Below, piece by piece: positions 14,642 to 57,116 of a stretch of 64,000 nt of DNA. The stretch spans positions 125,651 to 189,650 of the forward strand of contig JAGYKD010000001.1 of the NCBI GenBank assembly GCA_018401695.1. The letters run 5' to 3'. The translations under genes and the position numbers were made by a program. Origin of the DNA: Flavobacteriales bacterium. Lineage in GTDB: Bacteria > Bacteroidota > Bacteroidia > CAIKAF01. Positions within the stretch are counted from its first letter, which is position 1. Every line of letters begins with the position of its first letter. The notes below the pieces were generated by a model. The model ran no database searches, was not told where the DNA came from, and saw nothing but the letters and a program-made list of their open reading frames with translations.

Positions 14642-14783
14642 GGGCGGTGGCCGGGCCTTCCGCTTTAGTCCTCGGTTCGGAATCGGGCATCCCTAAGTCC
14701 CCAAGGGGCTTCCAGGGTCGCCCTTGGTGCCTAAGGGCTGCTCCGCTCCAAACCTCCGGGCTATCGCCTCAGTCCCTACCGCA
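14642..14783 (+). repeat. Intergenic hairpin element E1 (Flavo-1/REP-like)
   Basis: GGGCGG..CCGGGCCTTCCGC 5' end, long imperfect stem, loop TTCCAGGGTC, 3' end CAGTCCCTACCGCA. Confidence 0.8.
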
Positions 14784-14803
14784 AGATCTGCGAAACTCCG
14801 GCA

Positions 14804-15877
14804 TTACAAGCTCAAATAAGAAAAATCTTGCGCATTCTCTATCCGCTTCACCGAGGCCATCAACAAACGAATGACCGACTCCACATCCTCCATGGCTACG
14901 GTTTCTACGGTAGTATGCATGTATTTTAGCGGCAAGGAAATAAGCGCACTGGGAACCCCTTCGCCCGAATAGGCAAAGGCATCGGTATCGGTGCCGGTAC
15001 TGCGTTCGGCAACCTGCCGTTGAAAATTAATCTTTTCCTTTTCTGCTACATCAATCACTAGGCTCAGCAAACGGTTATGCACCGCAGACCCATAGGTCAA
15101 CACGGGCCCTTTGCCGCAGCGGATTTCCGGATCGTCCTTAGGATATCCCGGCGATTGATTGTCGTGGGTTACATCGGTAACCAGCGCTACATTTGGTTTT
15201 AATCGCCGAGAAATCATTTCGGCACCACGCAAACCAATTTCTTCTTGCACAGCATTTACAGCATACAAACCAAAGGGCAATGGATGTCCTTGCTCTTTAA
15301 ACCGACGCAAGACTTCGGCAATCATAAAACCACCAATACGATTGTCTAAGGCGCGTCCACACAGGTAGCGCTCCTTGTTCAAAAACATGGGCTCGTCTTC
15401 GAAAGTAGCCACACAACCAATGTGTATGCCCATTTCTTCCACTTCTTCTTTGGAATCGGCACCTACATCCAAAAAAATGCTTTTCATGGATGGGGCTTCT
15501 TCTTTGTCGCGTTGCCGCACATGAATAGCAGGCCAGCCAAACACTGCGCGCACTTCGCCTTTGGGGGTATGTATAATCACCCGTTTGGATGGAGCTATGA
15601 GGGGGTCGCTTCCTCCGTTTCGTTTGACGGAAATGTATCCTTTTTCGGAAATGGAGCTGACAAACCAACCAATTTCATCCGCATGGGCTTCTATTACCAC
15701 TTTGTAAGGGGCTTCGGGATTTACAACGGCCGCCACAGAACCGTAAGGGTCGGTAATCCAATGGTCGGCATAGGGTTTAATATACTCCATCCAGAGCTGT
15801 TGACCCGAGCTTTCGAAACCAGTAGGCGATGCGTTTTTCAGATAATTTAATAAAAACTTGCGGGCTTTAGCATCCAT
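14804..15877 (-). CDS. M42 family metallopeptidase
   Basis: AHADEIG, ALDNRIGG, QEEIGLRGA, DVTH, GTDTDA, LPLKYMHTTVE. Confidence 0.93.
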   Translation of the reverse strand: MDAKARKFLLNYLKNASPTGFESSGQQLWMEYIKPYADHWITDPYGSVAAVVNPEAPYKVVIEAHADEIGWFVSSISEKGYISVKRNGGSDPLIAPSKRVIIHTPKGEVRAVFGWPAIHVRQRDKEEAPSMKSIFLDVGADSKEEVEEMGIHIGCVATFEDEPMFLNKERYLCGRALDNRIGGFMIAEVLRRFKEQGHPLPFGLYAVNAVQEEIGLRGAEMISRRLKPNVALVTDVTHDNQSPGYPKDDPEIRCGKGPVLTYGSAVHNRLLSLVIDVAEKEKINFQRQVAERSTGTDTDAFAYSGEGVPSALISLPLKYMHTTVETVAMEDVESVIRLLMASVKRIENAQDFSYLSL

Positions 15878-15902
15878 AAGCAATATACATTGTAAGGGGA
15901 AC

Positions 15903-15931
15903 AAAAAAAACGCCCCAGAAGGTGGGGCGTT
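15903..15931 (-). terminator. Intrinsic terminator after rpmH
   Basis: AACGCCCCA/TGGGGCGTT stem followed by T8 on the minus strand. Confidence 0.85.
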
Positions 15932-15952
15932 AAAGAATTATTAAGAAATAGA

Positions 15953-16114
15953 CTATTTCTTGGGATAAAATTCATCGGAAACGGTGAGGCGCTTACGCCC
16001 TTTGCGGCGACGAGAAGCAAGTACTCTGCGTCCGTTGGCAGTAGACATACGCTTACGAAATCCGTGTTTGTTTCTTCTTTTGCGAATGGACGGCTGGAAC
16101 GTTCTTTTTGACAT
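15953..16114 (-). CDS. rpmH: 50S ribosomal protein L34 (53 aa; below ORF-track cutoff)
   Basis: Hand translation [53 protein letters not shown]. Confidence 0.97.
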
Positions 16115-16173
16115 GGCCTATAAATTTGGGCGCGGTTGCGCTGATGTATCTAAACTGTCTTTTTTGAGGACTG

Positions 16174-16181
16174 CAAAAATA
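16174..16181 (-). promoter_or_regulatory. Bacteroidota -7 promoter box for rpmH
   Basis: TATTTTTG matches TAnnTTTG. Confidence 0.6.
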
Positions 16182-16250
16182 GTAGTTCAAGGGAATTAAT
16201 CAAAACATTTACATTCTTTTTCCGTATTAATACATAATTAGAGAATCATC

Positions 16251-16396
16251 GGCCAGGGACCGGTGCGGAAACCCACCCTTTGGCTGCTTGTTGGTTTGGG
16301 GAGTGCTAAGCCCGGTGGCGCGCAGCAAACCCGGCTTAGCGCCGCCAAACCCAAGCTGCCAAAGGGTGCGTTGCAGCGAGGGCCCGGTTGGCCGCC
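16251..16396 (-). repeat. Intergenic hairpin element E2
   Basis: Minus strand GGCGGCCAACCGGGCCCTC ... CCGGTCCCTGGCC; stems CACCCTTTGGC/GCCAAAGGGTG and GCTAAGCCCGG/CCGGCTTAGC. Confidence 0.8.
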
Positions 16397-16411
16397 AAAA
16401 CAATAAAAAAT

Positions 16412-18562
16412 ATGCCATCGGTCGAATGGGAAGTAGAAGGAATGAGTTGCAGTGCCTGTGCCGGTGCGGTAAAACAAGCCCTGGAAAAACATCCTGCCGT
16501 TGGGGAGGCACAAGTGGCCTACAATGCCGGAAGAGCAAGCGTCCGCTGGGAGGGCAATGCGCCTGCTTTTGATGCGCTGGAGCGCTTGGTGGAACAAGCC
16601 GGCTACCGGTTGAGGCCCAAAGAAATGCAAAGTTCCGCCCGCGCTTGGCAAGAGGCCGCCAAACGTAGAAAAAAAGCCCTCCGCAAACGCGGCATGGAAA
16701 GCGCGCTTGCCCTAGCTATAAGTCTGCCCGTTATGGTGTTTGCCATGTGGTTTCACCACGCACCGGCAAGCCCATGGTTTGGTTTTGTTGGGGCGGGAAT
16801 TGTGTTGGGCTTGGGAAGAACCTATTTTGTAAAAGCATGGCAACAAATAAAAAACCGTTATCTGGCCATGGACACGCTCATAGCCTTAAGTACAGGAATG
16901 GCCTACTTCTATTCGGTGGGCCAATGGATTGCCGGCCACCCCGATATGCTGTTCTTTGAATCGGCCGCATTCATTATGGCTTTTGTTATGTTGGGTAAAT
17001 ACCTCGAAGAGCGTGCCCGTGCCTCGTCCCTAGACGCGCTTAGCAGCATGGCGGAGTTGGAAGTCGCCCAGGTGCGCCTGCACCCGCATGGCCAAGTAAT
17101 TCCTCTGGAGGAATTGCAATTGGGCCAAACGTTTTTGGTGAGTCAGGGCACACGCATACCTACCGATGGCAGGGTAGTGGAAGGAGAAGGAGAGGCCAAC
17201 GAACAATGGTTTACCGGCGAGGCGGCTCCGGTGCTCAAAACCCATGCAAGCGATGTAATGGCGGGCAGTTTGCTCATAAATGGCCAATTGGTAGTGGAAG
17301 CTACCCGCATGGGTAAAGAAAGCAGCCTAAACCAAACCATGCAAGCGGTCATGAAAACCTTGGGGCAACCTGCACCGGCGCAGCGTTTGGCGGACCAAAT
17401 TTCTTCGGTTTTTGTACCGGCAGTATTGGGGTTTGCATTAGCCACTTTTTTGATTTGGGGCCTTTTGCCTCAAGGCAGTTGGTGGATGGGCATACAGGCT
17501 GCCCTTACCGTGTTGGCGGTGGCTTGTCCTTGCGCCTTGGGTTTGGCCACCCCAACCGCCATTAGCGTAGCCGTGGGTTTGGCCGCCAAAAAGGGGGCCG
17601 TAATTCAAAAACCGGAAATGTTGGAGTGGATTGGGAAAACCGACCGCTTGTTTTTAGACAAAACAGGAACACTAACACAAGGCCGGCCCAAGGTAAAGAA
17701 CCACCAACTTCCTGAAGTCTATGCCGCTAGGGTGCGCCACATGGCGCAACGCTCGGTGCATCCGGCAGCCCAATCGGTGGCAGACCACCTAGAACATTCC
17801 GGAAAAGCCGCAAGCTTTGAAGCCCTAGTAGAGGAAATTCCCGGCAAAGGCCTGCGCATGAAAAACGAGAAAGGCGGGTTTTATTATTTAGGAAAGCCGG
17901 GCTGGGCAGCCGTTTCGGGGTGGCCTGACAAGGAAGCCAGCCTGGTGGTGTTTGGCAATGGGGAACAATGTTTGGGGTGGTTTGCCTTGCAAAGTTCCTG
18001 GCGCAAAGGAATGCCGGAGGCCATTGAGCAACTAAAAAAGATGGGAATACGTTCGGTATTGCTTACCGGCGACAGGCAAGCAGCAGCTCAGGAAATCGCA
18101 GAGCCCCTGGGTTTGCAGGAAGTCTATGCCCAACAAAGTCCGGCCCAAAAAGCCGAAAAAGTGCGGGAGGCCAAAGCCCAGGGACATTGGGTACTCATGG
18201 TTGGCGATGGCATTAACGATGCCGAGGCCCTAAGTGAGGCGCAGATGAGCATAGCTATGCAGGAGGGCAGCGGATTGGCCGTTTCTTCGGCGGGCATGCG
18301 TTTGCCGGCGGCACAGCTTCCTCAATTGCCCAGCTTCATTGAATTAGGAAAAAAGACCCGCCAAACCATACAGCAAAATTTGGCCTGGGCTTTTTTGTAC
18401 AATGTGCTGGCCCTACCCATTGCCGCAGGAGTACTGTATCCCTTAACAGGATACCTTATGAATCCTATGTGGGCGGGTTTGGCCATGGCCCTTAGTTCGG
18501 TGTCGGTGGTGGCCAACAGCATACGTCTTAGGATAAGCTTTCGTAACTTTGAACACGCATGA
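16412..18562 (+). CDS. copA: Copper-translocating P1B-type ATPase
   Basis: GMSCSAC HMA domain, CPCALGLATP, DKTGTLT, GDGINDA, YNVLALPIA, AMALSSVSV; start moved to ATG 16412 (ORF-track start lies in E2). Confidence 0.92.
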   Translation: MPSVEWEVEGMSCSACAGAVKQALEKHPAVGEAQVAYNAGRASVRWEGNAPAFDALERLVEQAGYRLRPKEMQSSARAWQEAAKRRKKALRKRGMESALALAISLPVMVFAMWFHHAPASPWFGFVGAGIVLGLGRTYFVKAWQQIKNRYLAMDTLIALSTGMAYFYSVGQWIAGHPDMLFFESAAFIMAFVMLGKYLEERARASSLDALSSMAELEVAQVRLHPHGQVIPLEELQLGQTFLVSQGTRIPTDGRVVEGEGEANEQWFTGEAAPVLKTHASDVMAGSLLINGQLVVEATRMGKESSLNQTMQAVMKTLGQPAPAQRLADQISSVFVPAVLGFALATFLIWGLLPQGSWWMGIQAALTVLAVACPCALGLATPTAISVAVGLAAKKGAVIQKPEMLEWIGKTDRLFLDKTGTLTQGRPKVKNHQLPEVYAARVRHMAQRSVHPAAQSVADHLEHSGKAASFEALVEEIPGKGLRMKNEKGGFYYLGKPGWAAVSGWPDKEASLVVFGNGEQCLGWFALQSSWRKGMPEAIEQLKKMGIRSVLLTGDRQAAAQEIAEPLGLQEVYAQQSPAQKAEKVREAKAQGHWVLMVGDGINDAEALSEAQMSIAMQEGSGLAVSSAGMRLPAAQLPQLPSFIELGKKTRQTIQQNLAWAFLYNVLALPIAAGVLYPLTGYLMNPMWAGLAMALSSVSVVANSIRLRISFRNFEHA

Positions 18563-18831
18563 AACTACCCATTTTTAGAAAACCCGCAGTTCCACACCGT
18601 TACAGGTTCAATACCACCCTTAAGTGTGGTGGATGTATTTTGGAGTTGGAAAAAGTATTCGAAGGAGATCCTAAAATTTCCCGTTGGGAGGTTAGCCTTA
18701 ATCAAATGCCGCTCATTTTGGAAATTACCAGCATGTACACCGTTGAGCAAGTTCAGACATTGGTAAAAAAAGCCGGGTATACCGCCGACTTATTGGAAGA
18801 ATTACCTTTAGAGGCCTCCAAAAGAAAATGA
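18559..18831 (+). CDS. Heavy-metal-associated (HMA/CopZ-like) protein
   Basis: TLKCGGC; ATGA overlap with copA; TAACTTTG box at 18544-18551. Confidence 0.75.
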   Translation: MKLPIFRKPAVPHRYRFNTTLKCGGCILELEKVFEGDPKISRWEVSLNQMPLILEITSMYTVEQVQTLVKKAGYTADLLEELPLEASKRK

Positions 18832-19247
18832 GTCAAAACGCCCAAAACATCTTAGCAAAAGCGGGCTTGCGCAAAACCAATGCCCGCATAGAGATTATTG
18901 CGTTTATGGACAATCAGGAAGGGGCTTTGGCCTTGGCAGACCTTGAAAGAAGCCTTTTGCATCTGGCCGACCGAGCCACCTTATACCGAACCTTAAAATC
19001 TTTTGAAGAAGCAGGCGTAGTCCATAAGGTGGTGGACCCATCCGGTGTGCTGCGCTATGCCCTTTGTCAAGAAAGTTGCCACACCGATGAGGCGCATCAG
19101 CATGCGCATGCGCATTTTAGCTGCACCTCTTGCGGAAAAATGATTTGTTTGGAAGAGCTTGACTTACCGGCTATGATACTTCCAGAGGGTTTTTTAGCCG
19201 AAGAGGCGCAGTTGGTATTCACCGGTTGGTGTAAAAATTGCCGCTAA
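18828..19247 (+). CDS. Fur family transcriptional regulator
   Basis: DRATLYRTLKSFEEAG, HQHAHAHFSCTSC, C-terminal CKNC. Confidence 0.9.
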   Translation: MSQNAQNILAKAGLRKTNARIEIIAFMDNQEGALALADLERSLLHLADRATLYRTLKSFEEAGVVHKVVDPSGVLRYALCQESCHTDEAHQHAHAHFSCTSCGKMICLEELDLPAMILPEGFLAEEAQLVFTGWCKNCR

Positions 19248-23502: not shown

Positions 23503-23650
23503 AGGCCCCTGATGGAGGCAAGTAGCTTGTGCAAGCCCAAAGCCGGAAGGCCGTGCAGCGAGGAGGCCCCGATACTTCGGGGACCCCGGAGCGCCGGCAA
23601 GACGTGCTTTGGGCATGCGCAACTACTGCCGAGAGCAGGATTAGGCCCCC
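23503..23650 (-). repeat. Intergenic hairpin element E3
   Basis: Starts 8 nt after the heptose kinase stop; arms GGCAAGTAGCTTGTGCAAGCCCAAAGC / GCTTTGGGCATGCGCAACTACTGCC. Confidence 0.72.
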
Positions 23651-23657: not shown

Positions 23658-24587
23658 TCATACCGAAAAAAGCCAATTGGCTTGCACAGCTACCGTACCG
23701 GGTTGTGCCACTACGAGTCCGGCGGCTTGATTGGCCAGGGCAATAGCTTCCTCCTCGGGCAGTTGAGCCGCAATACCTGCAGCAAGCACGGCAACTACGG
23801 TATCGCCGGCTCCGCTTACATCATATACCTTTTGAGCCTGAGCTTCAAAAAAGCGCACCTTTCCATTATGGTACCAGGCCATCCCCAGCTCGGAGAGGGT
23901 TACCAAAATATGGGGAATATTCCATCGTGCGGCAGCGGCATGCAAATGCGCCTCCACTTGTTGAGGTTTTGGCAAAGAAAATTGGCCCAAAGCCGCACAA
24001 AGCTCTTTCCAATTGGGGGTAATCCAATCGGTACCTTCGTAGCGATTCCAATCGGCATGTTTGGGGTCGGTCACCACCGGGATTTTCTTCTCTTGCGCCA
24101 TTCCATAGACATATCGGAGGACTTCAGGGCTAAGGCAGCCCTTTCCGTAGTCGGAGCAAATCCAAACCTGTGCCTTGCTTTCCTCTAAAGCTTTGGGCAA
24201 TTGCCGAACAGAGGTCAATTCCGGATTTCCAGGCTCTTGGTCTAAGCGAATCATTTGTTGCCCACGGGCTATGATGCGTTCCTTGGTAATAGTGGCCTGA
24301 TTGCTAAACCAAGTAAGGCAATGAATACCTGAGTTTTTGAGCAAATACAACAGTTCTTGTCCCTTTTCGTCGTCTCCTACCCTTCCAAGCATGTGTGTGT
24401 CGCAGTGTAAGCCGGCTAAATTCATAGCCACATGTGCGGCACCGCCGGGCTGGTGGATTTCGCGTTCTAAGCGTACCACAGGCACCGGTGCTTCAGGAGA
24501 AATGCGTGTGGCTTCTCCATAGCGGTAAATATCAAGCATCATATCGCCCAACACCATTACTGATACCTTGTGAAAAGGGTTTTGCAT
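23658..24587 (-). CDS. rfaE1: D-glycero-D-manno-heptose-7-phosphate kinase (stand-alone HldE kinase domain)
   Basis: GDMMLDIY, RISPEAPVPVV, PGGAA, SDYGKG, ITPNWKE, DVSGAGDTV. Confidence 0.9.
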   Translation of the reverse strand: MQNPFHKVSVMVLGDMMLDIYRYGEATRISPEAPVPVVRLEREIHQPGGAAHVAMNLAGLHCDTHMLGRVGDDEKGQELLYLLKNSGIHCLTWFSNQATITKERIIARGQQMIRLDQEPGNPELTSVRQLPKALEESKAQVWICSDYGKGCLSPEVLRYVYGMAQEKKIPVVTDPKHADWNRYEGTDWITPNWKELCAALGQFSLPKPQQVEAHLHAAAARWNIPHILVTLSELGMAWYHNGKVRFFEAQAQKVYDVSGAGDTVVAVLAAGIAAQLPEEEAIALANQAAGLVVAQPGTVAVQANWLFSV

Positions 24588-26786: not shown

Positions 26787-26805
26787 TTAGAGCTTTTTAA
26801 TTGTG

Positions 26806-31478: not shown

Positions 31479-31623
31479 GGCCGCCTGAACCGGGCCCTCC
31501 CTCCTGCCCGGGCTTGGGAAAACCTCGTCCTCATTAGGCCGTGCGGGGGCTTCTTGGGTCGCCTCCACCGGCCTATTTGGTCGGGCTTCCCCAATCCCGT
31601 GCATCCGTGCCGGTCCCTGGCGG
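31479..31623 (+). repeat. Intergenic hairpin element E4
   Basis: GGCCGCC..CCGGGCCCTCC 5' end, loop TTCTTGGGTC, 3' end CGTGCCGGTCCCTGG. Confidence 0.82.
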
Positions 31624-33203: not shown

Positions 33204-33606
33204 GAATCAAAGAAATACAAAACGCACAACGCATTGAGCAATTTTCAAGAAATTTGCTCATCCCGTTGCGCACATTTGACAAGAGATTCCTACTCAGGGC
33301 TTGGGTTAACTCATGGAGACCTTTGACGCCATGCGAGTGCCGAGCGGCATTTACTTAGCTTTTCTAAAGTGGTCGACTTCCATTTTAGCCAAATTAAAAT
33401 CAAATTTAGAGGTTCTTGTTGTCCAGTTTTGTTGGGGCTGCAGCCTTTTGCACACTTTTTTAGACATTAGCGGCCTCTAGTTTTTGATCGTTATTGGACA
33501 TAATTTTTTGATTTGCCCAAAGTTGAGAAGAGCTTTTGGAGGTGAAGAATATGGGGTTGGCTGAATGCTTACTTCAATTCTTGCTGTTATTTCGCCTCTT
33601 TGAATT

Positions 33607-34595
33607 TCACATTTTCGGTTCAACTATTATTGTCCACGAAATGGATTGTAATCGCTCTTGAATCATTTTTAACGTTTTTAAAATATCCTTTTCATTTGGC
33701 AATTCGCCATAGACCAAACTTTTAAAAACAGCTGAATAAGTAGGGTTTATTTCACTCCAAACACTATCCAATTCTTTGAAGATAAGGGCTTCCTTTGGGT
33801 GGTGCATGAGCCATTTATTATTATTCCTGAAACTTGCCACATCATCAATGGCTACTTTCAAAAGCATTTCATCAAAAGACTTTGAATGAAAGAATTCTGA
33901 ATACACCTCTTGTTTCAATAGCTGATGCAAATCGTAGGTGTGGCGTATCTTTTTCTTTAAATCTTCTATTGGATTTTCACCATAAGAAAAACGAACCAAG
34001 CTCATTATTTTTTCGCAAATGGTTCTGATGGGCTCTAATACCAATACATCAAAAGGAAGCAAATTATTTTCTTCAGCAATTTGGGCTTGTTGAGCATCTA
34101 CCATCATTTGCCCTACGAATGAAATGATGCTTTTGGTGGTGTAAGGCTCATAATATCCCAGCCAAGTAGATTCTAAAATGATGACGTCTCTTACTTGCCC
34201 ATAATCACCTTTGAATTCTTTGTTGTAGGAATGTGCCGTTTTTCTATTCATTCCCATTTTATGGGTGATACCTTCAATAGGGACTTCTGGCAAAATGCTT
34301 TCTACAACCTTGCTTACGGTCTTTAATTTTGATTTTAACCTGCTGTCTGTTTCTCCTTCACGCCTTAACACTACCAAATCAATATCTTCAGAAAATCGGT
34401 CTATCATCTGGTAACATTTAGACAATGCGGTACCGCCTTTGAATACGGTGTCGTTGGCTATTTCATTTTTGAAAATGGTAAACAAAGCAAGGTCACCCAA
34501 TAGTCTTTTTCTACATATTCGGGCTTTAGCTTCATTTTTTGGGCGGCAAACCGAATGGCATCCTTGTAAAGTGCTATGTTCTCGTGCAGCCTCAT
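33607..34595 (-). pseudogene. abiEii: AbiEii nucleotidyltransferase toxin, frameshifted near codon 36
   Basis: ATG 34595 overlaps the antitoxin stop and reads MRLHEN...YVEKDYWVT. A 1-nt shift at ~34489 then joins ALFTIF..VFKGGTALSKCY..RFSEDIDL. Span 989 bp = 3n-1. Confidence 0.82.
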
Positions 34596-35320
34596 TCGAT
34601 ATACCAATTTGATTTTGTGGGCAATTCACTCTCTTTTACGCCCAATTTTATGATAGTTAGTGGGTTTAAACTGTCTTTTAACTTTTCAATGCCTTGTGCT
34701 TTGCTGCCTAAATTTTCCAATATGGCGCCTACTAATGCGCGCACTCTTGGCGGATACTTCAAAGCATATTTGAGTAAGCTTGCGGTTTGCTTTTCGTTAA
34801 GCTCTTTTACTATGGCCCTTAGTCTATTTATTGCCTCACCCACAGAGCAATCAGGAATTTTTTTAATGTCTTTGAATGCATCCAACAAGCCTAATGTCTC
34901 CCAATTAATATCGGTCACTTCGGCATAACTTTTTACGGCATCAGCTTTTAGGTTTTCCCGATTGATGTTGACGCGTTTTCCTCGACTCGCAATTTTAATG
35001 CGGAATGCCATTTGAGTAGTTAAGCCCAAACGATTGTAAAGTGAAGTGCCTGTTTCGTAAGCCACTCGCTTACCGTTTTCAAACAAATAAGGGCGGAGCA
35101 ATTCGCCGTAATCGGGTTTTAGTTCGCCAAATACGGTTTGCTCAGGTTTGTAAAACACCCCTTTGGAAACTTTCTTTATCAACCCTTCCTTTTGCAGCCG
35201 TTCTAAGACTTTGGCTGCTGTGGTATAGTCTTCTTTGGCAATACGCAAATCGTCATAACCAAAGGTTTGCCCTTCGGGTAGCTGTTGTATTCGTTTGCGC
35301 ATTTCTGTTGCCAATGCCAT
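34592..35320 (-). CDS. abiEi: AbiEi-type antitoxin / wHTH regulator (DUF6088-like)
   Basis: LERLQKEGLIKKVSKGVFYKP, LYNRLGLTTQ; directly upstream of AbiEii; start ATG 35320 with TATCTTTG box at 35325-35332. Confidence 0.8.
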   Translation of the reverse strand: MALATEMRKRIQQLPEGQTFGYDDLRIAKEDYTTAAKVLERLQKEGLIKKVSKGVFYKPEQTVFGELKPDYGELLRPYLFENGKRVAYETGTSLYNRLGLTTQMAFRIKIASRGKRVNINRENLKADAVKSYAEVTDINWETLGLLDAFKDIKKIPDCSVGEAINRLRAIVKELNEKQTASLLKYALKYPPRVRALVGAILENLGSKAQGIEKLKDSLNPLTIIKLGVKESELPTKSNWYIE

Positions 35321-35345
35321 AATGCAAAGATAGTTATGATTTTGT

Positions 35346-35379
35346 AATGTCAGGTTTTTGGCGCTAAAAACTTGACATT
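35346..35379. promoter_or_regulatory. Inverted repeat, candidate AbiEi operator
   Basis: AATGTCAGGTTTTT-GGCGCT-AAAAACTTGACATT (14-bp arms, one mismatch) just upstream of the -7 box. Confidence 0.7.
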
Positions 35380-35480
35380 TTGTACTGATAAACATCTTCC
35401 TCTTTCTTTCCGTTCGAACCTGTCGGCATTTCCGGCTAGTTCTATTTTTGGGGAAGCCTACACCCCGACTTATATACTAG

Positions 35481-36782
35481 GAGACCGTTGACGTTTTCCA
35501 CCAACAAGCCCTTTATTGATGCTTATTCTTGATTTTTTCCGACTCAATTTCGAGATTTTATAAGTTTTTCGAATGTTTTGGTCTCATTTTTGGCCTTTTT
35601 TTCGTGCCATTTTGGGCGAAATCGCCCTCCTTTTCCTCCTTTTTTAACTCATGGACATAACTATCCCAGGGGATCGTTTTAAATTGTAGGCTATGGCTTC
35701 CATTAGATGTTGGGTATGGGTTTTTTCCAACCCAGCGTACCTTGCCACTCCCGACTTAAACCATCGTTTTATTCCTCCAAAGCTTCGCTCTATCGGATAA
35801 CGGTGCTGGGTAATAAAATCGTTCATCTCTTGCTTTGCCCTTGATAAAGTTTTGCCTCTTGACTTTTTATGCATGATGCCGTTCTTTAGCCCCATCTTCT
35901 TTAGCAACTTCTCATTCTTTTGACTTCGATAACCCTTATCACCAAACAACCTGGCACCCTTTTCAATGGGTACATTCGCTAGTACAACCTCTAAATTGCT
36001 AATTTCATTCACATTGGCCTCCGTGGTGTGGATGCCTATAAATAAGCCATTAGGATCGCTAACGGCATGTGCCTTGTAACCGAAGGTAAAGTCCCCGCCT
36101 TTGCACACCCAGCGCGCCTCATCATCTACGCCGGGCTGTTTGACTTTGACAAGCTTGAGTTGCTCCTTTTCCTGCTCGGGATCTTTTGGGTCTTCCAGAT
36201 CATTCGTAATCTCATAGGTAGCTTTACCCTTTGGGCTTCTTGGGCTTCTGGTCAGCGTGGCATCTACAATGGCTCCCTCTTTAACGATAATCCCCTTCTT
36301 CATCCGCTGCTTATTGATTTCTTTGAAAAGCTTTTCAAAGGCTTTTGTCTTAGTAAGCTCGGTGCGGAACTTAGAGACCAAACTATGGTCAGGAGAAGGA
36401 AAGTCTAAGGGAAGTCCAATAAACTCGCTGCATGCAAAAGAGTCGTTCACCCTATCCTCTACCTGATAATCATTAAGTCCATACCAAGTTTGAAGCAAGA
36501 GCATTTTAAAAAGAAGCAAACCAGGAACAGATGGCTGTCCATTGGCGGAATGCCCTTTGGTGTAATACTTATGAATAATGTTTTGAATGGGGCGCCAGTC
36601 GATTATCTGGTCAACATTTCTAAGGAAATCTCTGGTTTTGCTTTTTCTGCCCTCTTAGGCCAAGTCAAAAAAGGAGGGGCGATTGCTTTTTTCCATGGTC
36701 AAATATAAGAAAAAATCGGCAAATAACCCTGCAACAAACTGTTTATAAGTATGTTAAATTAAAATGACGCGTCAACAGTCTC
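35481..36782 (-). mobile_element. IS5-family insertion sequence (1302 bp)
   Basis: Terminal IRs GAGACCGTTGACG (35481-35493) and CGTCAACAGTCTC (36770-36782), one mismatch; encloses a DDE transposase. Confidence 0.88.
35644..36696 (-). pseudogene. IS5 transposase with in-frame TAA at codon 14
   Basis: MEKSNRPSFFDLA*EGRK...IDWRPI...LLFKMLLLQTWY; IVDAT, GYKAH, GDKGY, RYPIERSFG. Confidence 0.85.
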
Positions 36783-36853
36783 AAAATGTGCAAGTTCTTG
36801 AGCTTTTCTTTTGTAATTGGAGCACCTTGGCCCCAACCCCAACCAAACCCAAC

Positions 36854-36922
36854 ATGTAGAGATTTTTGCTCCAACAAATCACTAATAATCAGAAAGTTAA
36901 ACAAAAAAATGTAGAGATTTTT
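36854..36922. repeat. ATGTAGAGATT direct-repeat pair, 55-bp period (locus A)
   Basis: Copies start at 36854 and 36909. Confidence 0.65.
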
Positions 36923-36953: not shown

Positions 36954-37099
36954 GCGCCCCGGCGGAGGGCAATTAGCCTGCCGAACCAGGTGGCCCAGCA
37001 GCCGCAGGGGCAAGAGCGACCACAGGAAGCTCCTTGGCCATGCATGGCTGCGTTGCCATCCTAGGAGGCAGCTAATGGCCGGAGACGGATTAGGCGCCC
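36954..37099 (-). repeat. Intergenic hairpin element E5
   Basis: Minus strand GGGCGCC start 7 nt after the MBL gene stop; loop TTCCTGTGGTC closed by GGAGC/GCTCT. Confidence 0.75.
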
Positions 37100-37106: not shown

Positions 37107-37883
37107 TTAATCAAACTCCAAAGCCAGGCCATCGTAGGCCAATTGCATGCCCTTGGGTAGGGATTGGCTCACCTCCTCGTGGCGGCCCAAATAGTGCGAA
37201 ATGTGGGTGAACCAGGCCTCTTTGGGCTGTAAATGGTGCATGAGCGAAACGGCCTCCGCCAAATTGAAATGCGACACGTGCGGCTCCAAACGCAAGGCGT
37301 TTAGGGCAATAACTGCGGCTCCCTCCATTTTTTGCAATTCTTCGGGAGCAATGTAATTGGCATCGGTAACGTAGCAAAAGTCGCCTATGCGGAAGCCAAG
37401 TACGGGCAAACGGTGGTGCATTACCTGAATGGGTATAAAATGCAGATCTCCAATGCTGAATGGCTCCAAACCAATGGTTTTCAACTCCAGGTTGGGAACT
37501 CCGGGATACTTTTTCTCGGCAAAAGCATAGTGAAACTCGCGGCGCAAGGCGGTTTCTACCTGAGGGGTGCAATAGAGGGGCATGTCGGTCTTTTGGGAGA
37601 AATTAAAGGCCCTTACGTCGTCTAAGCCCGCTACATGATCCTTATGCTCGTGGGTAAACAACACGGCATCTAAGGTCTTTACCTGTTCGCGGAGCATTTG
37701 CTGCCTAAAATCGGGACCGGTGTCAATGACCACGCGGGTATGGGCGGTTTCGACCATGATGGAACTCCGCAGACGCTTGTCTTTACCGTTAAGGGATGTA
37801 CATACCTCGCAATCGCAAGCAATTACTGGGACTCCCTGCGAAGTGCCGGTTCCTAAAAAGGTTATTTTGAGGGAGCCGGCCAT
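37107..37883 (-). CDS. MBL-fold metallo-hydrolase (PhnP-like)
   Basis: LGTGTSQGVP, DTGPDFRQQ, THEHKDHVAGLDD, THISH. Confidence 0.92.
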   Translation of the reverse strand: MAGSLKITFLGTGTSQGVPVIACDCEVCTSLNGKDKRLRSSIMVETAHTRVVIDTGPDFRQQMLREQVKTLDAVLFTHEHKDHVAGLDDVRAFNFSQKTDMPLYCTPQVETALRREFHYAFAEKKYPGVPNLELKTIGLEPFSIGDLHFIPIQVMHHRLPVLGFRIGDFCYVTDANYIAPEELQKMEGAAVIALNALRLEPHVSHFNLAEAVSLMHHLQPKEAWFTHISHYLGRHEEVSQSLPKGMQLAYDGLALEFD

Positions 37884-48978: not shown

Positions 48979-49123
48979 GGGCGGCTTTACAGGCCCTCCC
49001 TTCAAGTCCTCAGAGCCAAGCCCTGTGGGGCTAAAGCCTGCGTGGGCTTCCTTCGTCAGCCTACACCGCTCAAGCCCCACAGGGCTTGGCTCCTCCGGGC
49101 TTTTCGTGCCGGTCCCTGCCGCA
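48979..49123 (+). repeat. Intergenic hairpin element E6
   Basis: Perfect 20-bp stem 49013-49032 / 49073-49092; 3' end CGTGCCGGTCCCTGCCGCA. Confidence 0.85.
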
Positions 49124-51037: not shown

Positions 51038-51183
51038 GCGCCCCGGGTGAGCCGGAAACCCCGGAAGCCGGAGACCATCTGTGGCTTGGCGGGTGGAGGC
51101 CCGACCCAAGAAGGGCCCCCGCAGCGCTTAGCCACAGAAGGTCTGCGGATGAGGAGTTGCAGGGGAGGCCGGAAAAGGCGCCC
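51038..51183 (-). repeat. Intergenic hairpin element E7
   Basis: Minus strand GGGCGCC start 4 nt after the kinase stop; loop TTCTTGGGTC identical to E4. Confidence 0.8.
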
Positions 51184-51187
51184 AAGT

Positions 51188-51862
51188 TTAAACCTCCATT
51201 AATCGATCGCTGTCAAAATAGTGCATTCCCGGGCTAAGGGGCAGGTGCACAAGCCGCAACATGCGCTCAAAATCAGCGTTATGCGCCACAAAGTCAATTT
51301 TTGAAACATCGACGAGGGCTACGGGTAGGTTTTTAAGGGAACGGAGCAATTCAAAATATCCGGATTGAATGTTTTGCAGATAGTCCTCCTGAATTTCTTG
51401 TTCGTAGGGCCGTCCGCGATGTCGGATATTTTGCAGCAGCCGCTCGCGGTCGCTGTGCAGGTAAATGAGTTTATCGGGGAGGGGAAGGCTATCGCGAATG
51501 ATTTTAAACAGCCGTCCAAACAGTTCAAATTCGGGTTGATCGAGGGTAATTTGCGCAAAAATGAGCGATTTTAGCACAAAATAATCGGCGACAATGCCCT
51601 GCTGAAACAAATCGGGTTTGCCCAACTCGTCTTTTAATTGCTGGTAGCGCTCGGCGAGGAAGGAGAGCTCCAAAGGAAAAGCATACTTTTTTCGGTCCTT
51701 GTAAAATCCCGGTAAAAAGGGGTTGTCCGAAAACTGTTCGAGCACCAGTTTGGAGCTGAAGTGCTGAGAAAGCATGGTGGCCAAGGTGGTTTTGCCGGCA
51801 CCGATATTACCTTCGATTACGAGGTATCTCCAGGGGTTTTCGGTTTGCCTTAATCCATCCAT
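51188..51862 (-). CDS. Deoxynucleoside kinase
   Basis: IEGNIGAGKTT, ELSFLAERY, IRHRGRPYE. Confidence 0.92.
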   Translation of the reverse strand: MDGLRQTENPWRYLVIEGNIGAGKTTLATMLSQHFSSKLVLEQFSDNPFLPGFYKDRKKYAFPLELSFLAERYQQLKDELGKPDLFQQGIVADYFVLKSLIFAQITLDQPEFELFGRLFKIIRDSLPLPDKLIYLHSDRERLLQNIRHRGRPYEQEIQEDYLQNIQSGYFELLRSLKNLPVALVDVSKIDFVAHNADFERMLRLVHLPLSPGMHYFDSDRLMEV

Positions 51863-52387: not shown

Positions 52388-52852
52388 ATGAAGGATTCTT
52401 TTGTTATAAAGCGTATGCAATGGACATTTAGTAGCCCTTGGTTTAGGGCCTCTTTTCAGGAGGTAGTAAAAGGCTTTGATGAGCAGTTATTTTCGGCACT
52501 AAACCCCAAGTGGATGCCCATGAAAGTACTTCGGTTTGACGGTTGTGCGCCGGGCGATAAAGTGCAATTGGCCATTGGCCTTCCGCCTTTAAGCATGGCT
52601 TGGACCAGCGAAATTACAGAAGCCAAACACGATGCTAGCTGTTGGTGGTTTGTAGACGAAGGCACGGCCTTACCTTTTTTCCTAAGCCATTGGAAACATA
52701 CCCACCGGGTGGAAAGCCGGGAGGGAGAATGCCGGGTAATAGACCATATTGAATTTGAATTCAGCAGCCCCATGTACAAGCTGTTGCTGCCTTTGATGCG
52801 TAAGCAATTCGGCTACCGCGAAAAGGTATATCCGGCTTATTTTACTCCATAA
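52388..52852 (+). CDS. SRPBCC/START-fold protein
   Basis: FVDEG..LPFFLSHWKHTHRV, VIDHIEF; start uncertain (52388 or 52415). Confidence 0.7.
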   Translation: MKDSFVIKRMQWTFSSPWFRASFQEVVKGFDEQLFSALNPKWMPMKVLRFDGCAPGDKVQLAIGLPPLSMAWTSEITEAKHDASCWWFVDEGTALPFFLSHWKHTHRVESREGECRVIDHIEFEFSSPMYKLLLPLMRKQFGYREKVYPAYFTP

Positions 52853-53895
52853 TAGGACTTGTACCAGCGGATAAACTGCTCTACTCCGGTTTGGATGGAA
52901 GTACTTGGTTTGTATCCATACTCGGTGATAAGTTCGGTTACATCGGCATAAGAAGTAAGCACATCGCCGGGTTGCAGTGGCATAGGATTAATTTCGGCTT
53001 TTTTGCCCAATTGCTTTTCGATTTCATGCACGTAGTCCATGAGGTTTACCGGGCTGCTGTGTCCAATATTGAGTACCCTAAACGGTGCCGAAGAAATATC
53101 GGGCTGCGGATGCAAAGGGTTAAATGAGGGGTCGGGCTGCGCCGGTTTGTCCATGACAGCCTCAATACCTTTCACAATATCGTCGATGTAGGTAAAATCC
53201 CTCCGCATGTTGCCGTGGTTGTACACATCAATGGGTCTGCCTTCAATAATGGCTTTGGTAAACAAAAAGAGGGCCATATCGGGTCTGCCCCAAGGCCCGT
53301 ATACCGTAAAGAAACGAAGACCGGTGGTGGGAATACAAAACAGGTGGCTGTAGGCATGCGCCATAAGTTCGTTGCTTCGTTTGGTAGCCGCATAAAGCGA
53401 TACCGGATGCACGGTGCTGTGTTGGGTAGAAAAAGGGATTTCGCCATTGAGCCCATAGACCGAACTGGAGCTGGCATAGACAAAATGCTCGGGTTCGATT
53501 TTGCGCATGCCCTCAAGCATATTCAAGAATGCCTCTAAATTGGCATGTAAATAGGCTTCCGGATGGGTTAAGGAGTAACGTACCCCTGCTTGGGCAGCCA
53601 AATGCACCACCACATCGGGCTTTTCTTTTTCCAACAGCTCAAACAGGGCCTCTTTATGGCATAAATCCAGTTTCCAAAACCGGAAAGGATAGCGGCTGCT
53701 TTGAAGTGGTCCGGGGTCGTTTAATTCTGCTTTATCTAAGCCCAACTGCTCCAATCGACCTGCTTTGAGCTCGGGGTCATAATAGTCGTTAAGAACGTCA
53801 ATACCCAATACTTCGCCCCGGCCATTATCCAAAAGGTGTTTAGCCAAGTGAAAACCAATAAAGCCGCCCGTTCCGGTAATAAGGATTTTTTTCAC
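52837..53895 (-). CDS. NAD-dependent epimerase (UDP-glucuronate 4-epimerase-like)
   Basis: TGTGGFIG, HLAAQAGVRYS, YASSSSVYG, YAATK, FFTVYGPWGRPDMA. Confidence 0.92.
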   Translation of the reverse strand: MKKILITGTGGFIGFHLAKHLLDNGRGEVLGIDVLNDYYDPELKAGRLEQLGLDKAELNDPGPLQSSRYPFRFWKLDLCHKEALFELLEKEKPDVVVHLAAQAGVRYSLTHPEAYLHANLEAFLNMLEGMRKIEPEHFVYASSSSVYGLNGEIPFSTQHSTVHPVSLYAATKRSNELMAHAYSHLFCIPTTGLRFFTVYGPWGRPDMALFLFTKAIIEGRPIDVYNHGNMRRDFTYIDDIVKGIEAVMDKPAQPDPSFNPLHPQPDISSAPFRVLNIGHSSPVNLMDYVHEIEKQLGKKAEINPMPLQPGDVLTSYADVTELITEYGYKPSTSIQTGVEQFIRWYKSYYGVK

Positions 53896-53945
53896 CTTTG
53901 TACATGCATGTTTGTGCCAAAAATAGAAAATACAGTTAAGGACGG

Positions 53946-54827
53946 ATGGTATTGTTGAAAGTTCTACGCATTCATCAATGGACCAAAAACCTGTTTTTGT
54001 TCCTACCCCTGTTTTTTGCCGGGGCCTTTTTGGAATGGAACCCCCTACTGAGCTGTATACTAGGTTTTGTGCTGTTTAGCTTAACGGCCTCTGCAGTTTA
54101 CATTATTAATGATATCCGCGACGTAGAGGAAGACAGGCTTCACCCCGAAAAAAAACACAGACCTTTTGCCAGTGGAGCTTGGTCTATGCGCAGTGGTCAA
54201 GTATTGGCGGCCCTGCTTGTTGGAGGTTCTTTTGCTGTGGCCTATTGGCTTCAGCCCAATTTTTTATGGGTGCTTTTGGCCTATTTCGCCATTAATTTGG
54301 CCTATAGCGCCGGGCTTAAAAAAGTAGCTTTACTCGATATTACCATGATTGCCACCGGCTTTGTCTTACGCGTAGTGGCCGGTGGTGTACTGGCTGTGCT
54401 GCCGATTTCTTCTTGGATTATTATAATGACCTTTTTGCTGGCTCTTTTTCTGGGACTGGCCAAACGCCGCGACGATTTGCTCATTCTGCGTGACTCCGGA
54501 AAAAAATTGCGGCAATCCTTAGACGGCTATAACCTGCCCTTTATTCAATCTGCCATGGTGCTCATGGCCGGGGTGGTTATGGTAAGCTATATTATGTACA
54601 CCATGAGCCCCGAAGTTATTGCTCGTATGGGCTCGGACAAACTCTACATTACAGGACTGTTTGTGCTCATAGGTTTGCTTCGGTATTTGCAACTCACCTT
54701 GGTTTTTGAAAAGTCGGGCAACCCGTCTAAAATTTTATTGAAAGACCGGGGTATTCAACTCAGCTTGCTGCTTTGGGTGCTGAGTTTTGTGGTGTTGCTC
54801 TACGCAGATAGCATTGTTTTGCCATGA
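53946..54827 (+). CDS. Polyprenyl-phosphate phosphoribosyltransferase (UbiA family, Rv3806c-like)
   Basis: RIHQWTKN, YIINDIRDVEEDRLHPEKKHRPFASG, LRVVAG, LAKRRDDL. Confidence 0.88.
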   Translation: MVLLKVLRIHQWTKNLFLFLPLFFAGAFLEWNPLLSCILGFVLFSLTASAVYIINDIRDVEEDRLHPEKKHRPFASGAWSMRSGQVLAALLVGGSFAVAYWLQPNFLWVLLAYFAINLAYSAGLKKVALLDITMIATGFVLRVVAGGVLAVLPISSWIIIMTFLLALFLGLAKRRDDLLILRDSGKKLRQSLDGYNLPFIQSAMVLMAGVVMVSYIMYTMSPEVIARMGSDKLYITGLFVLIGLLRYLQLTLVFEKSGNPSKILLKDRGIQLSLLLWVLSFVVLLYADSIVLP

Positions 54828-56146
54828 GTCCTTTTAAACAGTCCATAAGCAATTGGGGAAATTACCCCCTTACCGAATCTTTGGTTTATCAAGGAAAAGA
54901 GAGGCCGGCTTCCGGTCCCTATATTGCTCGTGGCATGGGACGCTGCTACGGAGACTCGGCCTCGCAAGCCCAGATTTGGTCGAGCCGTGCCAACCGCTGT
55001 ATGTTGGATTTTGATTCAAACACAGGAGTCCTAACTGCCGAAGCCGGACTTACCTTGGACGAGATTTTACAAACTTTTGTGCCCAGAGCTTGGTTTCTAC
55101 CGGTTACGCCGGGCACCAAATTTGTGAGCCTGGGAGGAGCTTTTGCCAGCGATATTCACGGCAAAAACCACCATGGAAACGGTTGTTTTTCGGACCATGT
55201 TTTGTGGATTGATTTAGAAAATGCCGAAGGCGAGGTGCTGCGGTGCAGCCGCGAAAAAAACCAAGAACTTTTTGAGCTCACCGCCGGAGGTATGGGACTC
55301 ACAGGCATTATTCTTCGGGTAGCACTCCAACTGCATCCAATTGAAACCGCCTACATAAAACAACGCAGCATTCGTTGCCGAAATCTGCAAGAAACCTTAG
55401 AGCAAATCCTTGCGCACCAACATTGGACCCATTCGGTGGCCTGGATCGACTGCCTGGCACCCGGCAAAGCTATGGGCCGATCTATCCTTTTGCTGGGCGA
55501 ACATGCCAAAGCAAACGAACTGCCTGAGAAATACCAAAACCAAGCCCTTAAACCCCACAGCACTCAACAAAAAAACTTCCCCTTTTTTCTACCCGGCTTT
55601 GCCCTAAATTCATTCTCGGTAAAAACATTTAATTTCCTGTATTACCACAAACACCTTCCCAAACAAAAGGAACAGTTGGTGCATTACGAACCTTTCTTTT
55701 ATCCATTGGATGCCATTGGCCACTGGAACCGCATTTATGGAAAACGGGGATTTACCCAATACCAATTTGTATTGCCTCCCGACCAAGTCGATGGCTTGAT
55801 TAAAATTATTGAAACCATACGTGCCCATGGCATGGGCTCTTTTTTGACCGTACTCAAACTTTTTGGCCCTCAAAAAGAAAATTACTTGCGGTTCCCCAAG
55901 GAGGGCTTCACACTGGCCATGGATTTTCCCTTGAGCCCCAAACTGGAGGGTTTTCTAAGTCAATTGGATGCACTGGTGTTGAAACATGGAGGACGAGTTT
56001 ACCTTACCAAGGACCTACGCATGCCTCCGGAAATGCTCATGGCTAGTTATCCTCAAGCAGAGCAATTTCGCCAAAAAATCAAAGAGATGGATTCAAAAGC
56101 CACCTTCCAAAGTTTGCAATCCCAACGCCTAGATTTGCACTTATGA
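54824..56146 (+). CDS. dprE1: DprE1-like FAD-linked oxidase
   Basis: RGMGRCYGD, PVTPGTKFVSLGGAFASDIHGKNHH, YPLDAIGHWNRIYG, GGRVYLTKD. Confidence 0.88.
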   Translation: MSPFKQSISNWGNYPLTESLVYQGKERPASGPYIARGMGRCYGDSASQAQIWSSRANRCMLDFDSNTGVLTAEAGLTLDEILQTFVPRAWFLPVTPGTKFVSLGGAFASDIHGKNHHGNGCFSDHVLWIDLENAEGEVLRCSREKNQELFELTAGGMGLTGIILRVALQLHPIETAYIKQRSIRCRNLQETLEQILAHQHWTHSVAWIDCLAPGKAMGRSILLLGEHAKANELPEKYQNQALKPHSTQQKNFPFFLPGFALNSFSVKTFNFLYYHKHLPKQKEQLVHYEPFFYPLDAIGHWNRIYGKRGFTQYQFVLPPDQVDGLIKIIETIRAHGMGSFLTVLKLFGPQKENYLRFPKEGFTLAMDFPLSPKLEGFLSQLDALVLKHGGRVYLTKDLRMPPEMLMASYPQAEQFRQKIKEMDSKATFQSLQSQRLDLHL

Positions 56147-56874
56147 AACATTGCCTCATTTTGGGAGCGCACTCAGATGTTGCCCTAGCCATTGCCCATC
56201 AACTGGCCAAAGAAGGCCATTCCCTTTGGCTTGCAGCCCGGAGGTTTCAGGATTTGGAACCTATTCAAAAGGATTTGGAAATTCGCTATGGGGTGCCTGT
56301 TGCTTGCTTTGCTTTCGATGCAGAAAAGCCGGAAAGTCACCAAGCATTTGTAGAGGCCTTGCCGGAATGCCCCGACGAGGTGTATTTGGTATTTGGGTAT
56401 TTGGGACCGCATCCCGGCAGCCTGGAGCATCCCACCGATGCCCGGCGCATTGTGCAAGTGAATTTTGCGGGAGCTGTTTCTGTGCTCCAAGCCTTGGCTT
56501 TGGCCATGCAAAAACGCGGCAAAGGTGCCATAGCCGGCATTTCCTCCGTGGCGGGCGAACGCGGACGCAAGAGCAATTTCCTCTACGGCTCAGCCAAAGC
56601 CGGCCTTAGCGCCTACCTGGACGGACTAAGAAACTACGGATACCATCATGGCTTTCATGTGTGCACCGTAAAACCGGGATTTATTCGAACCGCCATGACC
56701 GCCGGCATGGATTTACCCAAACCCCTTACGGCAAGCCCGGAGCAAGTAGCCAAAGCCACCATTTCTGGACTTCGGAAGAAGAAAGGAAGGGTGTATGTAT
56801 TGCCCATCTGGCGGTGGATTATGTGCCTTATCCGCAATATTCCGGACAGCATGTTCCGTAAAAAACAACTCTGA
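56143..56874 (+). CDS. dprE2: DprE2-like short-chain dehydrogenase/reductase
   Basis: SSVAGERGRKSNFLYGSAKAG, VKPGFIRTAMT; ATGA overlap with dprE1. Confidence 0.85.
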   Translation: MKHCLILGAHSDVALAIAHQLAKEGHSLWLAARRFQDLEPIQKDLEIRYGVPVACFAFDAEKPESHQAFVEALPECPDEVYLVFGYLGPHPGSLEHPTDARRIVQVNFAGAVSVLQALALAMQKRGKGAIAGISSVAGERGRKSNFLYGSAKAGLSAYLDGLRNYGYHHGFHVCTVKPGFIRTAMTAGMDLPKPLTASPEQVAKATISGLRKKKGRVYVLPIWRWIMCLIRNIPDSMFRKKQL

Positions 56875-56876
56875 GT

Positions 56877-56945
56877 ATGTAGAGATTGGCCAAGATCCAA
56901 ATATCTCATTATCAATTATTTAAATTTTTTAATGTAGAGATTTTT
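56877..56945. repeat. ATGTAGAGATT direct-repeat pair, 55-bp period (locus B)
   Basis: Copies start at 56877 and 56932. Confidence 0.65.
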
Positions 56946-56978
56946 GGGCCCCGGCATCTAGAAGTTTTTCTAATCTAA

Positions 56979-57116
56979 CCGGCCTCTTACTGCTGCCCGG
57001 CTGCGCATCGGCCTATGCAGGGCAACCTGCTGCGGTGGCTTTTCCTAAGGAGCCGCCTCCTCGCCGGGCCCTGCATGGCCGCTTGCTTGCCGTGCATTCG
57101 TTTAGGCCGGGGGGCC
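56979..57116 (+). repeat. Intergenic hairpin element E8 (most divergent copy)
   Basis: Stem GGCCTATGCAGGGC / GCCCTGCATGGCC; inner GGTGGC/GCCGCC followed by TCC as in other copies. Confidence 0.65.

Follow-up and report, generated by a model that had tools for sequence, protein, structure and literature searches.

The 64,000-nt stretch of DNA analysed here, called the window below, comes from a Flavobacteriales bacterium (GTDB lineage Bacteria; Bacteroidota; Bacteroidia; CAIKAF01; GenBank assembly GCA_018401695.1, contig JAGYKD010000001.1, positions 125,651 to 189,650 of the forward strand) and carries, among housekeeping genes of mixed orientation (Pfam scans), eight copies of a long palindromic element, E1 to E8. 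All eight are intergenic when checked against the open reading frames (ORFs) of the window, measure 138–148 nt and have a G+C content of 0.61–0.67, compared with a window mean of about 48%. Their limits run from the first base of a basal helix, P1, to the last base of its complement, P1′, and the canonical strand is the one on which a 5′ run of T is followed by GGSCSSC. A first-pass annotation, made from the sequence alone, had reported eight copies of about 145 bp; all are found where it placed them, as are the end motifs CCGGGCCCT and CCGGTCCCT. In the list that follows, A and B denote two kinds of base described below, R1 is a covariance model of type A, and z is the folding energy relative to dinucleotide shuffles.

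E1, 14642–14782, + strand: type A; R1 83 bits; z −2.4.
E2, 16250–16396, − strand: type A, loop class GTTTGCTGCGCGCCAC; R1 104 bits; z −4.7.
E3, 23503–23650, − strand: type B, 5′ GGGGGCCTAATCC..., 3′ ...CATCAGGGGCC; R1 16.6 bits (− strand, filters off); z −4.9.
E4, 31479–31623, with a 3′ tail TTAAGCTCCG to 31633, + strand: type A, apical loop TTCTTGGGTC; R1 124 bits.
E5, 36954–37099, with a 3′ tail TTAAGCTCCG to 36944, − strand: type B, apical loop TTCCTGTGGTC; R1 8.5 bits (filters off); z −1.9.
E6, 48979–49122, + strand: type A, perfect 20-bp helix; R1 132 bits; z −6.8.
E7, 51038–51184, − strand: type-A 5′ half, 3′ end ...CCCGGGGCGC; R1 99.6 bits; z −2.8.
E8, 56979–57116, + strand: diverged type-A member; R1 28 bits, E 4e-5; z −3.0.

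Read along the window, the orientations of E1 to E8 are +, −, −, +, −, +, −, +, and the start of an element mostly lies 4–23 nt past the stop codon of a gene on the same strand. E1 starts 4 nt past the stop codon of a + strand ORF (14110–14637) and ends 21 nt short of the stop of a convergent M42 peptidase gene; E6 starts 14 nt past the uvrB stop and ends 7 nt short of the stop of a convergent AAA_28 gene. E4 occupies the spacer of convergent ABC-transporter and cobalamin-adenosyltransferase genes, and E8 lies between convergent genes for a short-chain dehydrogenase and a class II tRNA synthetase. E3 follows a pfkB-kinase gene (23658–24587, −) in sense orientation, starting 7 nt past its stop; E5 starts 7 nt past the stop of a metallo-beta-lactamase-fold gene (37107–37883, −) and E7 4 nt past that of a deoxynucleoside-kinase gene (51188–51862, −). 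E2 precedes the ATG of a copA-like P-type ATPase gene by about 16 nt, in the divergent spacer between that gene and rpmH (15953–16114, −). The rpmH gene, a 53-aa ORF recognised as ribosomal protein L34 from its sequence (MSKRTFQPS...RKRR), is too short for the 100-aa ORF list, and a canonical terminator follows it at 15909–15931 (−). The convergent spacers that hold no element range from overlapping to 29 nt, so that the four long convergent spacers are made up of element. Placement close to stop codons needs no special mechanism, since an element dropped into a short convergent spacer abuts both genes and a co-directional spacer is promoter-free only beside the upstream stop.

Each of the eight copies folds as a single end-to-end hairpin. 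In a sliding 160-nt fold across the whole window (mean −39, sd 10 kcal/mol), the elements are the sole single long hairpins, at −67 to −93 kcal/mol. Their energy z-scores against dinucleotide shuffles range from −1.7 to −6.8; the modest values reflect the GC richness of the elements. Folding energy alone is marginal for E4 and E5, and the case for the family is one of topology combined with shared modules.

Those modules define the two types. E1, E2, E4, E6, E7 and, weakly, E8 are of type A, and E3 and E5 of type B; P1, the T-rich 5′ flank and the apical-loop classes are common to both. A type-A element is ordered as P1, a short linker, P2, an internal loop, P3, a locus-specific stem and an apical module. 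P1 is a covarying 5-bp basal helix that occurs as GCGCC/GGCGC, GCGGC/GCCGC, CCGCC/GGCGG or GGCCC/GGGCC. In P2, CCGGGCC pairs with GG-T-CCC-T-GG through seven Watson-Crick pairs, leaving two bulged T on the 3′ strand. The internal loop, in which CTCCCTCC faces TTTCCGTGCC, has two pyrimidine-rich sides and contains CUCCCUCC across from UUUCCGUGCC, P3 is AAGYCC/GGRCTT, and the locus-specific stem comprises 25–35 bp. The type-B base reads TAATCCGTCTCCGGCC ATTAGC at the 5′ side and GCTAAT TGCCCTCC GCCGG at the 3′ side. At least four classes of apical module (GGGC-TTCYnnSGTC-GCC; GGGCG-TTTGCTGCGCGCCA-CGCCC; GGTGG-TTCCRCAAAGCT-CCACC; CCCCGAARnATCGGGG) are found repeatedly, on differing stems and with either type of base. 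The loop TTC(C/T)n2-3(G/C)GTC, singled out in the first-pass annotation, is exactly apical in E1, E4, E5, E6 and E7; the perfect 20-bp helix of E6 was likewise verified, and E4 and E7 do share an identical loop, the E7 helix being 2 bp longer through an extra CC...GG step. The eight copies are thus not uniform, as the first-pass annotation implied: E3 and E5, at only 16.6 and 8.5 bits with R1 with filters off, have a different base module, and E8 is a weak member.

The long stems between base and loop pair without resembling one another. Among the eight window copies the variable left arms are 51% identical in pairwise comparison, against 47% for shuffled arms, whereas cognate arms form duplexes of −37.9 kcal/mol on average and non-cognate ones of −20.3 kcal/mol (sd 6.6) when arms are swapped. 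In the R1 alignment of 26 sequences, standard pairs fill 86% of cells versus 65% with shuffled partners, both sides have changed in 24 of 30 pairs, and the observed covariation values were reached by none of 500 shuffles; sliding the partners by one column lowers pairing to 58–60%. Individual comparisons tell the same way: between two loci outside the window (such loci are designated by L and a number), L104 and L008, a C-G pair has become T-A, and E5 differs from its L094 paralog by several paired changes. Pairing exceeds what chance and descent provide. The proposals that the stems are dissimilar yet paired, and that selection acts on pairing and not on stem sequence, are borne out by the covariation, the arm swap and the compensatory changes seen between orthologs and near-identical strains. 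That the stems are unrelated is correct among the window copies; a relative, however, carries sub-families with 72–91% similar stems at different loci.

Followed over time at a single locus, the stem shows strong conservation, and "freely covarying", the wording of the first-pass annotation, is too strong a term. The orthologs of E4 in two related metagenome-assembled genomes (MAGs; L019 and L059) are 95–96% identical to the window copy, against 65–80% at third codon positions of the genes on either side. Orthologs of E6 in L121 and L122 are 95% identical, the L104 and L008 elements 93.5%, and those of L039 and L102 97.6%; in these comparisons the identity at third codon positions of adjacent genes is 65–81%. 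The copies thus evolve several times slower than neighbouring synonymous sites, and 21 of 36 ortholog differences (about 58%) fall at unpaired positions. This contrast between 93.5–97.6% in the elements and 65–81% at neighbouring third positions points to purifying selection in place, at each locus and beyond the shared modules. Unbiased correction of one arm by the other would probably be insufficient as an explanation, because it would make double changes and not slow substitution. E2 is an exception to the slow rate: in strains from two other metagenomes, six substitutions fall within its 147 nt (about 4%), against a divergence of about 0.3% in the flanking genes. These preserve or improve pairing, one full G-C pair having become A-T and another change closing a mismatch, and the local excess could stem from an imported segment or from recombination with a paralog.

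The family is narrowly distributed. A scan of 185,579 species genomes for both end motifs, with a pattern of 20 fixed bases, returned 112 loci, which were filtered by GC content and by a single-hairpin fold. Single hairpins in DNA of about 49% GC account for 14 of the 112, nine in JAUHWY01 ('Bacteroidia bacterium 2_bin.4') and five in CAZJFM01; by the same filter, the remaining pattern matches are due to chance and lie in high-GC genomes such as those of Actinomycetota. Both MAGs are syntenic with the window, CAZJFM01 being 85% identical over window positions 24.5–31.9 kb. CAZJFM01 is labelled 'uncultured Candidatus Competibacteraceae', yet its contigs of about 49% GC are syntenic with a Bacteroidota window carrying T9SS Por_Secre_tail genes; given this synteny and the 85% identity, the label or the bin looks wrong. 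In JGI metagenomes a stricter pattern yielded three further contigs, orthologous to loci of the two MAGs, and in IMG/VR no element was found, the sole match being a chance one in coding DNA of a 63% GC viral contig. R1 recovered six of the eight window copies and all true copies of the relatives at 83–136 bits, apart from three weaker ones, E8 included, at 28–49 bits, and nothing else above noise. The window organism itself was found only in salt-lake, runoff and lake metagenomes. Among UvrB homologs, identity drops from 97–98% to 78%, the named relatives at 78% being Flavobacteriales or Bacteroidia MAGs, and in two 22-kb uvrB loci of such relatives (44 kb) neither a copy nor a comparable hairpin is present. 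On this evidence the family appears confined to one genus-level lineage.

Several features of the junctions resemble those of inserted DNA. The 12 nt preceding the element on its 5′ side contain 7.2 T on average and are T-rich in all 20 flanks examined. At the junction itself the run counts 0 to 7 T, with nine just before the junction in L022a, and because its length varies we assign it to the flank and not to the element; of about 15 copies, just 3 have an A-rich 3′ flank. The robust asymmetry is this T-run at the 5′ junction, which in L022a doubles as the U-tract of a canonical terminator directly preceding the element. Paralogs with similar stems (L022a, L104a, L110a and L094a) have sharp common edges and unrelated flanks. 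Apparent 'skip' joints inside E4 and L060a extend for only 21–22 nt on one side and were set aside as paralog or assembly artefacts, not excisions. Judging by its translation, an ORF at L063 with a type-B copy on one side and an inverted type-A copy on the other encodes a secreted, PKD-like protein rich in Gly and no enzyme. We infer mobility from the multi-copy, sharp-edged, sub-family pattern only.

The general kind of sequence to which the elements belong emerges from comparison with known repeats. With repetitive extragenic palindromes (REPs), their BIME mosaics and the REPINs they form, the elements share a multi-copy, extragenic, hairpin-forming nature, GC richness relative to spacers, concentration just past stop codons and between convergent genes, the lack of a target duplication, and use as landing sites for insertion sequences (IS), in this case a DDE IS and its miniature inverted-repeat transposable elements (MITEs) at or in the elements. 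REPs, however, are 20–40 nt long, and REPINs consist of about 100 nt built from two near-identical REPs, with a GTAG/CGTC tag and near-identical copies in each genome, whereas ours are single 140–150-nt hairpins with locus-specific stems, a conserved base and loop, and no tag: the 5′ foot is a T-run plus GGSCSSC without GTAG or CGTC, and the 51% stem identity in the window against 47% for shuffled arms is not that of a REPIN population. ERIC elements (also called IRU, 127 bp) and the Correia elements of Neisseria (100–155 bp) come close in length, in forming a single long imperfect palindrome and in being intergenic. Both are co-transcribed with neighbouring genes and processed by RNases. Their copies, unlike ours, are highly similar along the whole length, and Correia elements are bounded by 26-bp terminal inverted repeats and duplicate a TA, whereas here only ends and loop are conserved and there is no duplication. 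In integron attC sites, too, structure is retained over sequence: the foot is conserved, the central stem varies and some bases are extrahelical, and recognition is of the folded single strand, as might be true of the elements. No R″/R′ cores (RYYYAAC / GTTRRRY) occur at the element ends, however, and in place of a same-orientation cassette array with an integrase we find housekeeping neighbours in mixed orientation; a conserved apical loop is a feature of the elements and not of attC. DDE MITEs have inverted-repeat ends, which are trivial in a palindrome, but four sharp-edged paralogs of the elements have no target-site duplication, unlike an unrelated DDE MITE of the same genomes with a clear 6-bp duplication. 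As for palindrome-associated transposable elements (PATEs) of IS200/IS605 type, which insert 3′ of a fixed tetra- or pentanucleotide and have sub-terminal hairpins at both ends and an orientation tied to that of replication, the T-rich 5′ flank and the missing duplication fit, and the one end-to-end hairpin and the alternating orientation do not. The elements lack defining features of Flavo-1, of REP/RAYT systems (the tag and the near-identical copies), of DDE MITEs, of attC and of intrinsic terminators.

Two of the rival explanations assign the elements to something already known. Membership of the Flavo-1 RNA motif (RF01705), to which the first-pass annotation likened the ends of the elements, is extremely unlikely. 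Flavo-1 also occurs in Bacteroidota in multiple copies and tolerates a variable central hairpin, and the 3′ ends bear a loose resemblance (CCGGUC) to the published-alignment 3′ consensus ...AGCCCGGUC; it has been found sense or antisense relative to transcripts (PMC9723704). The 5′ modules and the overall architecture are nonetheless unrelated, and a cmscan of the whole window with the Rfam 15 models, whether the cut-off was the gathering score or, under permissive filters, E<=10, matched no family, RF01705 included, to any copy; mir-3127 and mir-995 at E6 (E 4–8) are generic hairpin matches that we count as chance. Very improbable, too, is the view that these are ordinary or bidirectional intrinsic terminators that merely look alike. 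The copies do lie at gene 3′ ends and four fill convergent spacers, but a T-run precedes the hairpin where a U-tract should follow it on either strand, which means that they are not standard intrinsic terminators. A terminator scan makes no call on them and finds the organism's ordinary short terminators elsewhere (for example, at 26805 and 15931), conservation across loci of base and loop modules of 30 nt or more would be unexpected, and the L022a copy directly follows a canonical terminator.

The other two, both proposed in the first-pass annotation, carry more weight. The elements could belong to a new structured RNA class, a 3′-UTR (untranslated region) cis element or a small RNA selected on the canonical strand and bound by a putative lineage-specific RNA-binding protein or RNase, which we regard as unlikely. 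Strong covariation and in-place purifying selection argue for it, as do most starts lying 4–23 nt after a same-strand stop codon and the strand-asymmetric conserved features, namely the two bulged T, the pyrimidine internal loop and the T-rich 5′ flank; G-U/G-C and U-G/C-G alternation recurs at module columns 37/151 and 79/110. Against it, folding energy is the same on both strands, the 5′ edge on inspection has no TAnnTTTG −7 box in register (a TTTG there has no preceding TA), no terminator follows, E2, L063a and L094a are not sense-downstream of a gene, and template-switch correction in a DNA palindrome can also yield paired double changes. The variable stems show no excess of canonical-strand wobbles, and this argues against function as single-strand RNA. 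Alternatively, the elements could be REPIN- or PATE-like substrates, still maintained or moved, of an HUH nuclease (Y1, of RAYT or IS200 type) or another recombinase of single-stranded DNA (ssDNA), a reading we consider distinctly unlikely. Insertion without duplication and in fixed orientation 3′ of a short motif is a hallmark of IS200/IS605-type and REP/RAYT systems; the elements show no target duplication and are placed, oriented, directly 3′ of a short T-rich motif, and they are hairpins with an extrahelical T. In a 78%-UvrB relative, the spacer after uvrB (L118, 12228–13300) holds a 115-aa Y1_Tnp gene (PF01797) amid its own short repeats, GCGACATTTTGATAGCCCTGTAGGGGCGACATTTT and CCGCCTTCGCCTCCGGCTTCGGCGG, which are RAYT/REP-like and unrelated in sequence to the elements; REP/RAYT systems thus exist in the wider clade. 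A tblastn search with this clade's Y1_Tnp, however, found no homolog in the roughly 190 kb sampled from the lineage, only a few percent of the genome, and Pfam scans of neighbouring genes gave only housekeeping functions. There is no conserved GTAG or CGTC tag, the copies are highly diverged and do not form a near-identical REPIN population, their orientations alternate within a replichore-sized window, unlike lagging-strand-targeted IS200/IS605 insertion, and no presence/absence polymorphism is seen among strains.

Based on the above data, we favour a different explanation: the elements are lineage-specific, non-coding, interspersed long palindromic repeats of the REP/ERIC/Correia-like kind, inserted beside T-tracts at gene ends and now fixed and constrained, to which we give a probability of roughly 55%. 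The family was previously uncatalogued and is a family of its own within the general kind of REP/BIME, ERIC and Correia. It would have spread in an ancestor of the lineage, non-autonomously and through recognition of its folded single strand, inserting in fixed orientation directly 3′ of T-rich tracts at gene ends without duplicating the target. Protein would recognise the loop and the conserved base with its extrahelical T, and the stem would need only to pair. The likeliest reason for retention by the host may be that the hairpin forms part of the 3′ untranslated RNA, either of the gene upstream or, at convergent pairs, of both genes, where it could act as a 3′-end barrier, a processing site or an insulator between transcription units. 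The present role is most plausibly that of a 3′-UTR hairpin, and a DNA-level role, as a cruciform or a protein-binding site, fits the data nearly as well.

A number of observations weigh against this explanation and its parts. No target duplication is present at the four sharp-edged paralogs, and comparison of the contigs of four metagenomes with the window and L060 revealed no empty site, every checked element being present in all related strains; nor was a mobilising enzyme or an associated transposase found in the DNA sampled from the lineage. E2, alone among the copies, occupies a divergent promoter region and no 3′ end, six of the ten convergent gene pairs in the window do without the hairpin, and co-directional contexts give about 6 sense against 2 antisense copies, too few for significance. 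Some copies lie downstream of a canonical terminator and may be poorly transcribed. The variable stems contain 69 wobbles on the canonical strand and 49 on the opposite one, counts that become equal once one conserved module wobble per type-A copy is removed. No U-tract lies 3′ of the hairpin on either strand, the T-run being 5′, and a search for RNA-seq runs turned up none containing the locus.

A bolder version of host maintenance is speculative and rather improbable: the elements would form a new class of structured nucleic-acid signal, kept by the host at hundreds of loci per genome, in which a putative dedicated protein reads the apical loop and the foot, with its 7-bp helix, two flipped-out T and pyrimidine internal loop, and the long rod of arbitrary sequence serves as a spacer. 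Such a signal could be part of a lineage-specific system of 3′-end formation or RNA decay, or an ssDNA recombination substrate unrelated to RAYT or attC.

Other mobile sequences are found around the elements. A separate DDE insertion sequence (window 35478–36916; transposase 35644–36519, Pfam DDE_Tnp_1 and DUF772) lies beside E5, and its MITE derivatives of about 145 nt, with terminal repeats GAGYCCRTTGACGCGTTG, occur at or inside hairpin elements: sites of the IS or its MITEs are beside E5 in the window, inside the E5 ortholog (L059, 3398–3555) and beside the E4 ortholog (L019, about 300–500). A further MITE, at L115 2790–2933 (equivalent to L060 7688/7693) and also in run X5, is located exactly at the 5′ T-run junction of L060b, where filled and empty versions of the site compare cleanly and reveal a 6-bp duplication, AATTTG. 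Two occurrences of the motif ATGTAGAGATT, 55 nt apart, lie beside each of E5 and E8 (five matches in the window versus 0.65 expected). Segments of about 66 nt at 36854–36919 and 56877–56942 align; the former is the right end of the IS near E5, and the latter, 5′ of E8, looks like a solo IS-end remnant. Short REP-like repeats, CCCTGACGCTTCGGTCAGGG, are also found, single or in tandem arrays of 27-nt units GAAGTYCCTGACCGAAGCGTCAGGGAA that are partly N-masked and border the MITE (L019 about 500–800, L005 6540–6740, L056 about 6440–6470), and these repeats resemble CGTC-tagged REPs.

Between 33385 and 35477, where G+C falls to 0.40–0.42, the window encodes an AbiEii toxin (33607–34629, −) and a DUF6088 protein (34592–35395, −), a type IV toxin-antitoxin-like pair. 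This low-GC segment lies on the opposite side of E5 relative to L059, in which a sequence of about 85 bp (33385–33469 in the window) is present on both sides of E5; together, the position of the segment and the repeat point to an IS-associated rearrangement with E5 at the breakpoint. Elsewhere, the first 8–9 kb of the window (1 to about 9000) have a G+C content of 38%, compared with about 48–50% in the remainder, and seven tightly packed, overlapping + strand ORFs at 2795–9137 are possibly an acquired gene cluster.

Interspersed palindromic repeats, common in Proteobacteria, are poorly charted in Bacteroidota, and in the public collections searched the present family occurs in only one uncultured salt-lake and aquatic lineage. 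What takes it beyond another REP family is the combination of a fixed foot and loop with a stem that is free between loci, and its conservation in place above synonymous sites argues that the host needs the hairpins. For those working with such genomes, the elements matter to MAG quality and annotation, as short-read assemblies break at them (in one relative, contigs end at E4) and they attract IS and MITE insertions. If a partner protein exists, the family would offer dozens of natural sequence variants of one structure with which to probe its recognition.

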